DNA from: a virus
Length of the DNA: 14,087 bases
Virus genome (UHGV): UHGV-1356053
Direction: 5' to 3' (one strand)
In this document: positions 7,083 through 12,873 of the stretch, in pieces
How the letters are laid out: every line of letters starts with the position of its first letter
Numbering within the stretch: position 1 is the stretch's first letter
Notes under the pieces: model-generated
Databases searched by the model: none
Told to the model about the DNA's origin: nothing
What the model saw: only the letters and a program-made list of their open reading frames with translations
Program-made: the position numbers and the translations under genes

Positions 7083-7382
7083 CTACGATGCAAGAATCCA
7101 TACCAATAAGCATCCGATAATTGGGAAAGAAAAATCCAACAGACTTCCCACATCCCACACGCGTGGATCAAAACCTCCCCACCACGGCATGTTGATGCGT
7201 TTCCCTTTCCCAAACTTTTCTATCCAGCGATATTCTGCCTGGGTGTGTTCACGCGCAATGAAGAACGTACAACCGGCTATCGCACCGTAAGCCCAGTTTC
7301 CGGTAGAAAGGCCAACCAGTACCTGAGCCGCAAAAGCGCAAAGCGAGTGAAGAAATGGAGTGACATCAATGCTCTTAATCAT
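7083..7382 (-). CDS. Hypothetical small membrane protein (99 aa), translationally coupled to the tailspike
   Basis: Its ATG (7382-7380) overlaps the tailspike stop (ATGA); hydrophobic segments [30 protein letters not shown] and [16 protein letters not shown]; occupies the tailspike-to-attP slot where P22 and Sf6 carry gtrABC or oac. Confidence 0.65.
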
Positions 7383-9436
7383 GAAACTTCCCCATTGGTT
7401 GAAAATATGGCTCCTCCAACGCCAAGTGTATTTCGTGTTGCGCTCAACCTCAGAGGGCTGGAGTCAGAATTAGAATATCCTGTAGCAGAAATAAAAGATC
7501 CTCCACTAATAGTCAACTGCGGAACATCGGCTATATCTGAATAAGTTCTGTCAGCAACAGTATTATTTATAGCCACATGTGATCCAAAAAAACTTCTTAT
7601 TGTTTGGTTTTTAACTTTACTTCCTTCAATGGTTATCCTACTACCACAGTCGGCAATAAATCCTGAATCTGCATCCAGCGTTGCATTCATAAAAGAAGCT
7701 TCAGATCTCTCTACATCAATCCATCTAATATCTTTTGTGGGATTTGCACCAAATACATGACAAATATTAGAGTTAAACCTTACTCCATCTTGGAGGTGCA
7801 TTAATTTTTTTATATCTGTACCCCATAGCCTTGGAAAATTAACAGATGCTCCTGCATGGCAATCAAATCCCAGCTCAGCCCCTGAGATATCTACAGCCTT
7901 TCCTGAAATAACAGCGCCAGTGTCTGCATTAACGGCTGTTCCACAATTGCGCATATCATTACCAGCAACATCAACACAACCCGCACCATCAATACGCACA
8001 CCAAGCGCACATCCATAAAAACCTTTTTCAATATTTGGTTCAAGGACTTTACCACTTGTTTCTGCATCACTTTCTTCAACGTCATGTCGTCTTGCATCAA
8101 CATATGCTGTATGAATGCAGGTTAATCCACGATATGAGCAGTGTATAGTTTTATGGTCGCGTATATTAACATTTGAACCATCTCTTACATTCCACCCCAT
8201 ATAACAATAGCTTGCACTTGACCCCTGAAAATCTGCTTTAACATTATAAATACAATTAACTGACGCAACCGTACTCTCTGTGCACCGTTCAAACTTGCTT
8301 ACAGGCATTGATGCCTTGACATTATTTACCAGTTGCAGGGAAGAGTATCTGCTATAAGAAAAATCACATACGTAATACCCTTCTGGCATATATGCAGCAA
8401 CACTTTCCTCATCAGGAGCACATCCGGTATGATATGCACTAATTTTTGCACCAAAGCTACCATGAATTCCAACGTAGAACTTTCGAGCACCTGAATACGG
8501 ATAGAAATTAAGTTCAGCTTTTTGAGTTACAATAAATGCACAAACATCGCTATCATCTCTATTTTCTTCAATCTGAATAGCAAATACAGGACTTTTTGCT
8601 GCATCGCAAATGTAAAATAAATATTTGTATTCGTAATACGTCCTAACAGTTTTAGTAAACAAACTGGTATCAGAGAAAACCACTGAGTCTTCTGATATTA
8701 TTTTAATCCATGATAAGTCACATCCTGCTGAAATTTCTATTTGCTCATTGAGCACAAAACCGGAAAGAATTTTAATTATGCAAAAATCAATGCCATTTTT
8801 CCATAGTGGACGCAGTGCAACAGCTGAGTTTAGAGCATCACTAATAGATTTAAAATTACCATATTCCCCAACTGTTATTGTGAATGCATACCTGGAATTA
8901 AATACTGCGGCACTCTCTCCAGAGTTAATAGCTGCAGATATCATGTCATAATTTGATATAAAATCATTTGGCGTGATTATTTCTGCGTTTTTATTGTGCT
9001 GTGTTCTAAGTTTTGAATTTACATGAACACTTTTAACTGCAATACGGGAGTCGTCAACAAGTATTTCATTACCCTCTGTTGCTAACTCTTGTCTTAACTG
9101 ATCCGGGTCATACTTCAGCACATTCGGAAAATAGAACTGCTGCACACCGTACGCATCATAAACAGCCATAGAATGGCCCTGTACAGTAACGAATTTGGCA
9201 ATCTGTCCGTTATATACAGGGTAACCAGCAGCGTTAATGATGATTGGTTGCGAAACAGGAACGTGAGAACCGTCTTCGTTTTCCACATAAACCTGAATCT
9301 GGTTTTCAGGATTTACCGGGTCAGTGTCAATTTTCCCGATATAAATTTTGCCATTGGCTACGGCTTTAAAAGAACGCGCCATAGTGAAGAGTTGCGAAGG
9401 CATACTCACTACAACATTGGCTGTAATGTCTGTCAT
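7379..9436 (-). CDS. Tailspike protein: P22/Sf6-type N-terminal head-binding domain plus divergent receptor-binding (putative depolymerase) body, 685 aa
   Basis: N-terminal ~115 aa ([46 protein letters not shown]...NVLKYDPDQ) match the podovirus tailspike head-binding domain as recalled; the rest is Gly/Asn/Ser/Val/Cys-rich repetitive sequence compatible with a beta-helix; GGAG 8 nt upstream of the ATG. Confidence 0.95.
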
Positions 9437-9472
9437 TTAATTTGCTCCAGATACAAGGAATCGCCGCAGCAT

Positions 9473-9519
9473 TGCCACAGTGATGCATTATTAATCAAAC
9501 AAAGAGACCGCTGTGGTCT
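9473..9519. promoter_or_regulatory. Candidate operator elements in the divergent tailspike/mnt control region
   Basis: TGCCACAG (9473-9480) and its inverted near-copy CTGTGGTC (9511-9518; reverse complement GACCACAG); local palindrome AGACC-N5-GGTCT (9505-9519); lies in the 146-bp gap between the tailspike and mnt starts. Confidence 0.35.
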
Positions 9520-9582
9520 TATTGAGGATGCAACCAGCAGATAATAAGATGCCGATCCACTCACAAAAGCGAGGCATCAAGA

Positions 9583-9834
9583 ATGGGAAGAGATGACCCG
9601 CAATTTAATCTGCGGCTACCTTACGAATTAAAGGAAAAACTAAAACAGCGAGCCAAATCCAATGGCCGCTCTCTTAATTCAGAATTAGTTCAGATAGTGA
9701 CTGATGCTGTATCAAAGCCATCCAAAATTTCAGGCTATCGAGACGATGCGGAACGCATCGCTGATGAGCAGTCAGAGCTTGTTAAGAAGATGGTGTTTGA
9801 TACGCTGAAGGATTTGTACAAAAAACCCACCTGA
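9583..9834 (+). CDS. mnt: Mnt-type ribbon-helix-helix repressor (83 aa)
   Basis: MGRDDPQFNLRLPYELKEKLKQRAKSNGRSLNSELVQIVTDAVSKPSKISGYRDDAERIADEQSELVKKMVFDTLKDLYKKPT matches P22 Mnt along its whole length as recalled, including the C-terminal ADEQSELVKKMVFDTLKDLYKK. Confidence 0.93.
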   Translation: MGRDDPQFNLRLPYELKEKLKQRAKSNGRSLNSELVQIVTDAVSKPSKISGYRDDAERIADEQSELVKKMVFDTLKDLYKKPT

Positions 9835-9850
9835 AGGTGGGTTAATTTTT
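9824..9850 (+). terminator. Rho-independent terminator of mnt
   Basis: AACCCACC (9824-9831), loop TGAA, GGTGGGTT (9836-9843), then AATTTTT; the mnt stop codon lies in the loop. Confidence 0.75.
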
Positions 9851-9868
9851 GCATTTACCTGGGCCATA

Positions 9869-9897
9869 TTGACTACTTATAAAATGAGATCAATATT
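9869..9897 (+). promoter_or_regulatory. Candidate sigma70 promoter for the small downstream gene
   Basis: TTGACT (9869-9874), 16-17 nt spacer, CAATAT/AATATT (9891-9897); about 35 nt upstream of the RBS at 9925. Confidence 0.35.
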
Positions 9898-9933
9898 TAA
9901 TCGCCCAATAACGGGTGTATGTTGAGGTATATC

Positions 9934-10113
9934 ATGGCGAAAAAACCAGGTGAAAACACAGGAAAAAACGGCGGAATATACCAAGAAGTTGGCCCACGCG
10001 GCGGTAAGAAAGACAATTTTGCAACCGTCAAGGACAACGAAAGGCTTCCACCAACAACAAAGCCAGGTCATGGCTGGGTATTGGATAAGCGAACTCCAGA
10101 CAGCAAAAAGTAA
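9934..10113 (+). CDS. Small Gly/Lys-rich hypothetical protein (59 aa), tentatively YjzC-like
   Basis: ATG 9934 with GAGGT 5 nt upstream; MAKKPGENTGKNGGIYQEVGPRGGKKDNFATVKDNERLPPTTKPGHGWVL...; flanked by its own promoter candidate and a terminator. Confidence 0.6.
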   Translation: MAKKPGENTGKNGGIYQEVGPRGGKKDNFATVKDNERLPPTTKPGHGWVLDKRTPDSKK

Positions 10114-10118
10114 TAATC

Positions 10119-10141
10119 AAGCCGGGTCACTCCGGCTTTTT
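10119..10141. terminator. Bidirectional intrinsic terminator between convergent genes
   Basis: AAGCCGG (10119-10125), loop GTCACT, CCGGCTT (10132-10138), then TTTT; the stop codon of the minus-strand HExxH gene (10127-10129) lies within the hairpin. Confidence 0.7.
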
Positions 10142-10492
10142 GATATGTCGCTCGCAGAACTCAACAAGCCTGCTCATTAAGTAGCAGTAAGTCTCGTTGG
10201 CTCTTCCTGGTTCAACATCAACACCTACCCTTGAGCAGATATCGAATGCCATGTGAGCGCACTCATGGGCAATAGTAGATAGTTTGCCATTGAACACGCC
10301 TATCACATGCAAAACACCATTCTCGCTACTCATTGTATGAGACGCTCCGTTGGCGTCCGAGTCATGCACGTCAACGCCAAGTTTTTGATGCAGGCGTTGC
10401 CATTCTGGAAAGTCTCTACAAAACACAATTGTACCGCTCTCAAAGAGCGGAACGAGCATCTTTGGTACGTTTCCAATGTTAACTTTTTTCAT
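10127..10492 (-). CDS. Small soluble HExxH-motif protein (putative minimal Zn-metallopeptidase-like), 121 aa
   Basis: ATG 10492-10490 with AGGA upstream; IAHECAHMAFD (HExxH) followed by Glu residues 16-22 positions downstream (VDVE, NET), a gluzincin-like arrangement; no hydrophobic segments. Confidence 0.7.
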   Translation of the reverse strand: MKKVNIGNVPKMLVPLFESGTIVFCRDFPEWQRLHQKLGVDVHDSDANGASHTMSSENGVLHVIGVFNGKLSTIAHECAHMAFDICSRVGVDVEPGRANETYCYLMSRLVEFCERHIKKPE

Positions 10493-10526
10493 GGTATCCT
10501 GCGCAAAACTAAGGAGAGTTAATTAT

Positions 10527-11012
10527 ATGAAAAAATCACTGTTAATTATCCCGCTTCTGCTGGCTGGGTGCGCAAAAGTAAGCGACTATCAGGCAAGTTG
10601 CGAGCAACGCTATCCAAAGCTTAGCGATATGGCTAATTGCCTTGATGCCAGCTTGAAGAACGACTCTCGCATGGCATCAGCACCAACACCTAAGCTGTAT
10701 GTCCTTGCTGCGAAGATGCTCGGGCAAGGTGTCGATGAAGGCAAGATAAGTGACACACAGGCAAGACTTGAACTTCAGAATCTTTATGTTCAATTACAAA
10801 GCCAAGAACAAGCACAACAAATAGCACAAAGCCAAGCATTCCAGCAGGCTTTATTGAATTATCAGGCTGTAAACACAATGCAAGCGATCGAGCAAAAAGC
10901 GCGCCAGCCTGTTATAACTCAACCTTACCCAACACGCGTTGACACATATACAAACTGCAATTCAGGATTTGGAAACACGGTAACATGCAACAGTAGCAGT
11001 AATATCAGATAG
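10527..11012 (+). CDS. Lipoprotein with Gln-rich coiled-coil region (161 aa)
   Basis: ATG 10527 with AAGGAG 10 nt upstream; signal peptide MKKSLLIIPLLLAGC with lipobox LAG-C, Ala at +2; four further Cys in two pairs; QSQEQAQQIAQSQAFQQALLNYQAV coiled-coil-like. Confidence 0.8.
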   Translation: MKKSLLIIPLLLAGCAKVSDYQASCEQRYPKLSDMANCLDASLKNDSRMASAPTPKLYVLAAKMLGQGVDEGKISDTQARLELQNLYVQLQSQEQAQQIAQSQAFQQALLNYQAVNTMQAIEQKARQPVITQPYPTRVDTYTNCNSGFGNTVTCNSSSNIR

Positions 11013-11025
11013 TTATATCTTATTT

Positions 11026-12873
11026 TTATTGCTGTTCTGCTGTAATTTGGCTTGAAAGTATAGGGCGTATCGCATTTGCAGCATTATTTAGCGCTCTTTC
11101 ATAGGCTGGTGTTCCTGCTTTGGTGTTTGCCAAACGTAAGAGAGCATTCCTTGCTGCTTTTGACTCATACAAGCGCATCATTGCACCGAAACCAGCCTCA
11201 AGCCCCATTGATACGCCAAGAGTCGCAGTTGCGCCAATCGTCCTTATCCTGTTGGCTTGCGATTGCCCCGTCTGAGTTACTACATTTGCGGTGTCTGACC
11301 TTGCTGTTTGCTGTAGAACTTCATGAAGAGAATCAAGCTCTTTCATGTGCTTTCCAGAAAAAATAGTGTTGTAAATTTCACCGCCTGACTGAGATTTCAG
11401 CTTATTAACTTCAGTGATGAACTTGGCTGGAGAGTCACCGGCCTTTTCCGCTATTTTGCTGACATAAGCTGCACGCATAGCATCTTTCCCTTTATTATCC
11501 AATGCGCTCCAGATTCGTTTCACGTCAGATGGTTTTCTGCTTAATACAACGGTATTTATAAGTTCAGGACTGGCTTCACTGCTTGCCTTGTTGAGCTTGT
11601 TAGCAATGTTTTTATTAAGCACCTTATTATAAACGTTTGCATAATCGGAATTTGCTTTAAGGTATTTTGCTGCGTCTGATGCACCGAGGTTTTTTGCAAC
11701 TGCGTTACGAAGATCTTTTGACATTGCATTCTCTACCATATTGGTAGCTGCTTTTGCCTGGTTTGGGAAGACCATAGCATCTCCCTGAACATTAGATCTA
11801 AATGCTGTTCTGTGCTGACGCAAGAGATCAAACGTAACATCCAAATCAGTTGCAGGGTTTGCTAATTCTTCACGTAGGTTACGCAAGGATGTAAGCAGGC
11901 TTTGATTGGCAGACGTCCCAAGCCGTTCCTGTCTTGCGATCGCTGTATTCAGAGCATTCATGGTATTTGTGGTATCAACTGCGGCATTACCCATTTTATT
12001 GGTGACGTCATTGATAACAGCGCCAGCGGCATCCTTCCGCCCCCTTAACGTGGTGGTAAGAGATTTCACCACATCATCAGGGTTGTACTCACCAAAACGG
12101 TCAAAATAATTACTTACCAGCTTACTACGCGTTGCATATTGCTCCGCTCGCTTTGAGCCTGTCCCGAGCAAAGCCCCCTCGGCATCCTGAGTTAGGCCGC
12201 GAGTGAAAGCATTTTTCGGCGGGATAACATCAGATGTCATTGGTGTCACGCCCATCGATTCTGATGTGGCAATTTTCTTCGCCACTTCTGGCGCAATATC
12301 ACCTTTTATAGCCGTTATTCCACGCCCTATTCCCTTTGCTGCTGCGGAAAGAACCCCCTGAGCGGCAAGGTTAACTCCGGCATTTTTAGCTGCATTTTGT
12401 GCGAAATCGCCTTTCTGATTTGCGGCCTCTGCCAGTGATCCAATAGCCATGCTTCCTGCCGTTCCAACTCCTGGAACTAAATACCCGCCAATTGTTTCTC
12501 CAGCTTGCGCATAAGGGTCTGTTGGTCGATCGACTGGACGATAGACATCGTCCAAAACCTTGGGGCCACCAAGCCCCTGGCTGATTGCATTAATCAGACT
12601 TGCGCCGCCCTGCAATACGTCAAATGGTATGTTTACCAGACCACGACCAGCCTGTTCCGCAATTTGCCCTGCACTTTGACCACCAGTGAGCCAATCGCCA
12701 GCTTGTTGCATCAATGATGGTTCTTCCCGTGTTGGTGCATTATTGGCCTGATTAACTGTTTGTTGCTGAACAGCCTGACCAGCAAAATACTCATCAATGG
12801 CGGTGCCAATATCTTCGGTGCTCGTACCATCAGGAAAGGTAAATATCTTACCGTTTGCAGTTACTTTCATCAT
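11026..12873 (-). CDS. Ejection (DNA-transfer) protein, P22 gp16-like by size and position (615 aa)
   Basis: Ala/Gly/Gln-rich soluble protein of the size expected for gp16, immediately upstream (in late-operon direction) of the sieA/immI-position island and tailspike. The second ATG (12870) has the better-spaced GGTGG RBS. Confidence 0.8.

Follow-up and report, generated by a model that had tools for sequence, protein, structure and literature searches.

The window, by which we mean the whole 14,087-nucleotide stretch of DNA analysed here, is part of a P22-like (Lederbergvirus-type) Escherichia coli prophage. A tailspike gene encoding the P22 head-binding domain lies on the minus strand at 7379-9436, mnt lies on the plus strand at 9583-9834, and a homologue of P22 gene 16 occupies 11026-12873 on the minus strand; further left in the window are genes for an integrase, a Rad52-type recombinase, an SSB and an Ead/Ea22 protein. 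The gene under study, hkcC (10127-10492), sits between gene 16 and the tailspike gene and shares their strand. The 1.7-kb stretch around hkcC is present at full length, with 99.0-99.8% identity, in 15 of 5426 complete E. coli genomes, as part of chromosomal prophages; one of these 15 is an ST131 strain, and 998 genomes match at least part of the stretch.

Two features of the surrounding prophage are recorded in passing. (i) The gap between mnt and the tailspike gene (9437-9582) measures 146 bp, so the prophage lacks the P22 immI genes arc, sar and ant but retains an intact mnt; Mnt is thereby left as a repressor without its known target gene. (ii) A hydrophobic ORF of 99 aa (7083-7382, minus strand) overlaps the tailspike stop codon by 4 bp on the same strand and matches no Pfam family. 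It may be a membrane-protein moron that ends the late operon, near the attachment site and integrase region.

The ORF at 10127-10492 starts with ATG and is read on the minus strand. It is hkcC, a long-known gene of P22 and HK620 that the earlier note on this DNA had not recognised: its product is 99.2% identical in amino acids to HK620 HkcC (NP_112089) over all 121 residues, and the same ORF is 99.2% identical in the P22 records other than AF217253. That original P22 record shows just 71.9% identity to the window protein. In the P22-pbi record AF527608 the hkcC ORF is intact at 2501-2866 yet carries no CDS annotation, and a 'P sieA' promoter is placed within its first 31 bases. P22 and many P22-like Salmonella phages have hkcC between sieA and orf59a, and a comparative paper (PMC2629481) lists two genes of the P22 'ant moron' as having no known function, hkcC and 59a. 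The literature on hkcC, on SieA and P22, on YjzC, on phage SprT-like proteins and on phage accessory-gene screens yielded no functional data on hkcC or orf59a. RefSeq names all CDSs of the region 'hypothetical protein' save mnt, gene 16 and the tailspike gene. HkcC matches phrog_1365 ('unknown function') over residues 1-121 with E 1.7e-39, and has no family match in Pfam, NCBIfam or PADLOC; lantibiotic matches to its HEC...C stretch in these scans were set aside as spurious. The gene itself is thus already known, while its enzymatic assignment and the size of its family are absent from curated databases.

Upstream of hkcC, a divergent intergenic region of 34 bp (10493-10526) holds the Shine-Dalgarno sequences of both hkcC (AGGA) and a lipoprotein gene (AAGGAG), the latter with its ATG at 10527. 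Similarity to P22 and HK620 stops near 10520, about 28 bp past the hkcC start, so a mosaic junction coincides with the divergent region. Beyond it, the divergent gene is sieA in P22, hkcB in HK620 and the lipoprotein gene in the window. The lipoprotein gene (10527-11012, plus strand) encodes 161 aa with the signal MKKSLLIIPLLLAGC, matches phrog_6067 and no Pfam family, and was found in phages Gally and vB_EcoP-720R6 only. It is a candidate superinfection-exclusion or surface-modifying moron.

The other end of hkcC runs into a GC-rich hairpin, AAGCCGG-GTCACT-CCGGCTT (10119-10138), that is common to hkcC and the convergent orf59a, and the hkcC stop codon (10127-10129) sits in its loop. A terminator scan found the hairpin terminator-like on both strands, with a clear T-run on the plus strand only. 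The HK620 annotation calls this hairpin a bidirectional terminator, and the P22 annotation names it t-mnt. An earlier note on this DNA, made from its letters, had described both the divergence from the lipoprotein gene by 34 bp and a stop codon inside a bidirectional terminator hairpin; each description agrees with what we find. All five other genera examined retain a hairpin at the hkcC stop: in three of them its stem sequence matches that of the window, and the Pasteurellaceae and Klebsiella loci pair with a different stem. No sigma-70-like promoter appeared on the hkcC strand in a scan of 9400-11100. In P22, the antiterminated late transcript must cross the hkcC region to reach gene 9. Judging from its strand, the promoter scan and P22 late transcription, hkcC is most simply taken to be late-transcribed. 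Rfam profiles detected no RNA family in the window.

The convergent gene orf59a (9934-10113, plus strand) encodes 59 aa. Its product matches phrog_3202 (E 1.3e-31) and, below threshold, the Pfam family YjzC; UniRef labels its relatives 'YjzC family protein', and an AlphaFold model (pLDDT 88) shows three beta strands. This gene converges on hkcC in the window, in P22 and in HK620 (there only as the possible HkcD coding sequence), and does so as well in loci from Xenorhabdus (L006), Pasteurellaceae (L008), Rosenbergiella (L017), Klebsiella (L018), a metagenome (L020) and Morganella (L023-25). It lies 5-17 bp downstream of the hkcC homologues despite differing surrounding genes, and the HkcC homologues at these other loci are 46-63% identical, a figure that excludes Morganella. 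No orf59a is found beside members of the Orf-129 subfamily or beside the Proteus homologue, and YjzC proteins without HkcC occur in a Salmonella bongori prophage and outside phages. Closer homologues nearly always have the convergent partner; the linkage of hkcC and orf59a is one-sided.

A promoter scan detected a promoter-like element upstream of orf59a, TTGACT-N17-AATATT (9869-9897, plus strand). It is found at the same position in the Rosenbergiella and Xenorhabdus loci, and its hexamers are conserved in an alignment of eight loci (window positions 9869-9933 together with L002, which is P22-pbi, and L006, L008, L017, L018, L020 and L024). Between the -10 hexamer and the orf59a Shine-Dalgarno sequence lies a short inverted repeat, CGCCCAATAACGGGTG, at about 9902-9917 of the window. 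By eye, its arms seem to differ in sequence yet still pair at several of these loci (CTC..GAG, GCC..GGC and CTGCA..TGCAG, for example); it might serve as an operator or form a stem-loop in the 5' UTR.

The HkcC translation contains the sequence IAHECAHMAFD. Within it, the codons for H76-E77-C78-A79-H80 (10253-10267, minus strand) specify two predicted zinc ligands and a predicted catalytic base, as judged from sequence and conservation. A second conserved group, N99-E100-T-Y-C103-Y104 (10181-10198, minus strand, with N99-E100 at 10193-10198), includes the presumed third zinc ligand, E100, so assigned from conservation and spacing: the 20 residues from H80 to E100 equal those from H146 to E166 in thermolysin. 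Kyte-Doolittle analysis of the whole protein revealed no membrane segment (maximal 19-residue mean 1.07; GRAVY -0.16; pI 6.4), and a secreted or membrane-bound HkcC was rejected because it has no hydrophobic segment. These results bear out the earlier note in its description of a 121-aa protein lacking a membrane segment and carrying this motif with a Glu at gluzincin spacing. HkcC has the sole HExxH among window ORFs of 60 aa or more. Shuffling the protein 200,000 times gave HExxH in 2.6% of cases, and HExxH with a Glu at +20 in 0.15%; a chance motif is excluded by the conservation of HExxH across a large family. A chance ORF was likewise rejected, since the protein is conserved down to 25% identity.

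The family proved to be large. When 1.84 billion cluster representatives were searched with a profile, 546 scored E ≤ 1e-3, and almost all of these are stand-alone proteins of 100-140 aa. Among the best 150 of the 546, 145 were newly found representatives, and 141 of these have HExxH. The motif is missing from four: two are fragments or frameshifted, one is a low-quality sequence and one reads HKAAH (an E-to-K change). A Glu follows the second His at +19 or +20 in nearly all of the 145. Conservation was counted in an alignment of 133 sequences (A3) that reaches down to about 25% identity. G49, H76 and H80 are invariant there (133/133), E77 and E100 are each found in 132/133, and lesser conservation is seen for Y104 (125/133), G90 (121/133), C103 (110/133) and N99 (102/133). 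No conserved His follows H80 in this alignment. The two His, the catalytic Glu, the downstream Glu and a Tyr one helical turn later have the appearance, in sequence, of a working gluzincin-type constellation. The near-strict retention of HExxH and E100 argues against a decayed, inactive fold. The earlier note had left HkcC as either a protease or an inactive fold, and had named homologues without HExxH as evidence that would count against its reading. The homologues keep the motif, which supports the protease side of that pair and weakens the other.

Some relatives are longer, and ten of these were inspected, among which no informative domain fusion was found. Gene 72 of the lambdoid phage mEp044 (L003, 4001-4585), directly after the lysis genes, encodes a 194-aa protein with the HkcC-like domain at its N-terminus and a weak alanine-zipper (Lpp-like) match in its C-terminal part. 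Phages mEp515, mEp010 and MagusPhagus also match.

An AlphaFold2 model of HkcC, built from an 18-sequence alignment, has pLDDT 89.1 and pTM 0.83. It predicts strands at residues 11-13, 21-25, 49-56 and 59-66 and helices at 28-37, 71-88 (carrying HExxH) and 100-116 (with E100 at its start). The predicted order of elements, b-b-a-b-b-a(HExxH)-a(Glu), or sheet, backing helix, beta hairpin, active-site helix and glutamate helix, is that of a minimal zincin. A Foldseek comparison of the model with the PDB gave nothing at E ≤ 1e-3; the best protease was SPRTN (6mdx), at rank 3 with E 0.18 and TM 0.30. Against predicted viral structures (BFVD), Foldseek found 26 matches at E ≤ 1e-3, all of them phage proteins of about 100-215 residues from varied genera, lytic phages included; sources include a Pseudomonas Schitoviridae (N4-like) phage, two Ralstonia phages and Erwinia phage Wellington. 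A crAss-like phage protein fell just above the cutoff (E 1.8e-3). Three of the BFVD matches are named 'SprT-like' or 'Metalloprotease', with TMq up to 0.72 for a named one.

Remote sequence similarity gave weak signals. With phmmer, HkcC residues 66-113 align without gaps, over 48 residues, to thermolysin 132-179 (E 0.09-0.65, not significant), and HExxH falls on the thermolysin HExxH and NE on NE. Family profiles from two alignments, compared with PDB sequences, matched zincins only (E 0.15-1.4, none significant): astacins (BMP1, TLL1), myroilysin, peptidyl-Lys metalloendopeptidase and thermolysin, and in the displayed alignments the strands preceding the motif and the motif helix are aligned. 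The Pfam family SprT-like (PF10263) has sub-threshold matches in 18 of 133 family members (best E 1e-4), but none to the window HkcC, and no member reaches the curated threshold; ten distant members scanned had no SprT-like match either. One or two members each have sub-threshold matches to DUF5700, DUF4344, M48, DA1 and Reprolysin_2. Nothing was obtained when the family profile was compared by hhalign with E. coli SprT/YggI, and no Peptidase_M78 match was found in the 133 members. Similarity to the thermolysin family (M4) is confined to the 48-residue stretch (E 0.09-1.4) and is not significant over the catalytic domain. Every weak signal to solved structures and to Pfam points to zincins or peptidases, none of them significantly, and we would place the HkcC family in the zincin world, outside every curated family. 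As a separate observation, positions 31-82 of one family profile (A7) weakly match an internal segment, near residue 2200, of giant phage virion RNA polymerases (11fw, 11go and 9pnq; E about 0.8-1.2, not significant), which might conceivably reflect an embedded zincin-like module.

Genomic contexts were compared at 16 loci, where HkcC homologues are encoded within late or early lytic operons and co-directionally with them. In epsilon34, as in prophages of Kluyvera, Citrobacter, Atlantibacter and Mixta, the gene is flanked by the lysis cassette and the small terminase gene; in Xenorhabdus, Rosenbergiella and Klebsiella prophages of siphovirus type its slot separates tail genes from the tape-measure gene. 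It comes after replication genes in a Pasteurellaceae prophage, and in a Pseudomonas phage of the N4-like kind it stands first in a group of small genes. Relatives are thus found in both temperate and strictly lytic phages. A repressor gene (mnt) is near hkcC in P22-like phages only, with orf59a between the two. The presence of relatives in lytic phages and their co-orientation with lytic operons favour a function in phage growth, and on these grounds cleavage of a host protein is a likelier role than a host benefit expressed from the prophage.

The reading we favour, and hold with moderate confidence, is that HkcC is a genuine minimal zinc metallopeptidase, produced as the phage grows lytically and directed at a specific target, probably a host protein that it cuts. 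HkcC would be an accessory (moron-type) product of P22-like phages, a soluble cytoplasmic zinc endopeptidase of minimal size. We infer zinc binding and catalysis as follows: a single zinc ion would be held by H76 and H80, on the active-site helix, and by E100, which begins the following helix; E77 would serve as the general base activating the zinc-bound water; and Y104 and the beta hairpin of residues 49-66 may help to hold the substrate. As to timing, hkcC would be expressed mainly in lytic growth, from the antiterminated late transcript, and the most likely role of its product would be to cleave a specific host protein, in counter-defence or host takeover. Should that protein belong to host immunity or regulation, HkcC would act as a proteolytic factor of counter-defence or takeover. 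The proposal makes a 'hypothetical protein' testable as an enzyme through four point-mutation targets, H76, E77, H80 and E100. The family comprises at least 546 clusters at 50% identity, in temperate and lytic phages, without a curated model, and a single characterised member would annotate many.

The conserved pairing with orf59a makes that gene the first candidate partner for HkcC, and raises the possibility that the two form a functional pair, in which a late protease cleaves or inactivates Orf59a, or is inhibited by it. Such a pair might be a lysogen/lytic switch or a protease-inhibitor (toxin-antitoxin-like) module, with Orf59a made from its own promoter, for instance in the lysogen. The convergent orf59a is kept across genera though surrounding phage genes differ, the shared hairpin is conserved and still pairs with different stems in Pasteurellaceae and Klebsiella, orf59a has its own conserved promoter-like element, and convergent transcription would keep the two genes from being expressed together. 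However, YjzC proteins do without HkcC in S. bongori and outside phages, the Orf-129 subfamily and the Proteus homologue do without orf59a, and two morons with one common terminator could simply travel together; we consider a functional pair unlikely. Its fullest form, in which hkcC, orf59a, the orf59a promoter and the shared hairpin constitute a mobile two-gene switch whose lytic protease removes or opposes a small beta-protein, is to our minds similarly doubtful, but if true it would represent a new type of phage module, a protease coupled to a dedicated partner. A different departure from the favoured reading retains the His-Glu-His-Glu site as metal-binding and makes HkcC something other than a peptidase: another hydrolase, or a structural or regulatory protein. 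Some small WLM/DUF45-type HExxH proteins are reported to act on non-peptide substrates, and the model has no significant three-dimensional match to any solved zincin. We nevertheless give this reading a low probability, since a catalytic HExxH Glu, conserved along with a Tyr one turn past the ligand Glu, is typical of peptidases, and all the weak homology signals point to peptidases.

Two more specific kinds of protease have to be weighed against a protease of host proteins. HkcC could be a relative of SprT, Wss1 and SPRTN that removes proteins attached to DNA, covalently or tightly, during phage replication or packaging, as hinted at by the sub-threshold SprT-like matches of 18 of 133 members (best E 1e-4), by SPRTN 6mdx as the best protease fold match in the PDB (E 0.18) and by BFVD fold relatives named SprT-like. 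Yet the presumed, conserved third ligand is a Glu and not the downstream His of SprT/WLM enzymes, neither a zinc ribbon nor a basic DNA-binding region is present (pI 6.4), and the hhalign comparison with E. coli SprT was negative, all of which makes this kinship very unlikely. Alternatively, HkcC might be an ImmA/IrrE-type anti-repressor protease that cuts Mnt, C2 or the repressor of another prophage and so promotes lytic development. ImmA-type enzymes are HExxH + Glu proteases of mobile elements, hkcC of P22-like phages belongs to the immI region, with mnt only two genes away, and two BFVD models named IrrE are weak fold matches (E 0.03-0.045). It is difficult to reconcile this with the lack of any Peptidase_M78 match in 133 members, with the siphovirus, lambdoid and N4-like contexts, where no repressor gene is seen at the four loci that have gene calls or annotation (L003, L017, L018 and L020), with the position of hkcC on the late strand and not with the repressor operon, or with the much smaller size of HkcC than of ImmA, and we regard an anti-repressor of this type as highly improbable.

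Among known systems, the minigluzincins offer a precedent for size. They are stand-alone catalytic scaffolds in which HExxH is followed by a further ligand on the next helix, and include proabylysin and projannalysin (PDB 4JIU and 4JIX); HkcC has no detectable similarity to these two in sequence or fold. Since soluble minigluzincins of about 100 residues are known (PMC4559962), the small size of HkcC is not unprecedented, and the remark of the earlier note that HkcC is far smaller than Lit-type or ImmA-type phage proteases calls for some tempering. Thermolysin and the Bacillus neutral proteases (MEROPS M4) have the identical HExxH-(20)-NE spacing, and the alignment spans the active-site helix, the loop and the glutamate helix (E 0.09-1.4, not significant), but HkcC is without the rest of the roughly 316-residue thermolysin enzyme. 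SprT-like, SPRTN and Wss1 proteins (WLM, PF10263) resemble it in having a small HExxH domain, predicted to be zincin-like in HkcC, in sub-threshold profile matches and in weak fold matches; they differ in that the presumed third ligand of HkcC is Glu and not His and that HkcC ends at residue 121 without a DNA-binding or zinc-ribbon module. ImmA/IrrE proteins (Peptidase M78) are HExxH + Glu proteases of phages and mobile elements; HkcC has no profile match to them, no obligatory adjacent repressor gene and about 50 fewer residues.

Closest to the window gene are HkcC of HK620 and hkcC of P22, which are the same gene: they too lie between gene 16 and the tailspike gene and have the same terminator hairpin, and differ in the neighbour on the divergent side. 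A second group comprises ST64T Orf-129, ST104 ORF47, epsilon34 gp70 and phage L Orf129, with 38-40% identity over the full length. These too come from P22-like phages and keep HExxH and NE, but they differ from hkcC in occupying the slot between the lysis cassette and the small terminase gene, as seen in epsilon34, and in having no orf59a. Both types can be found together: ST160, SE1Spa and others have an hkcC-type and an Orf-129-type paralogue, at two places in each record.
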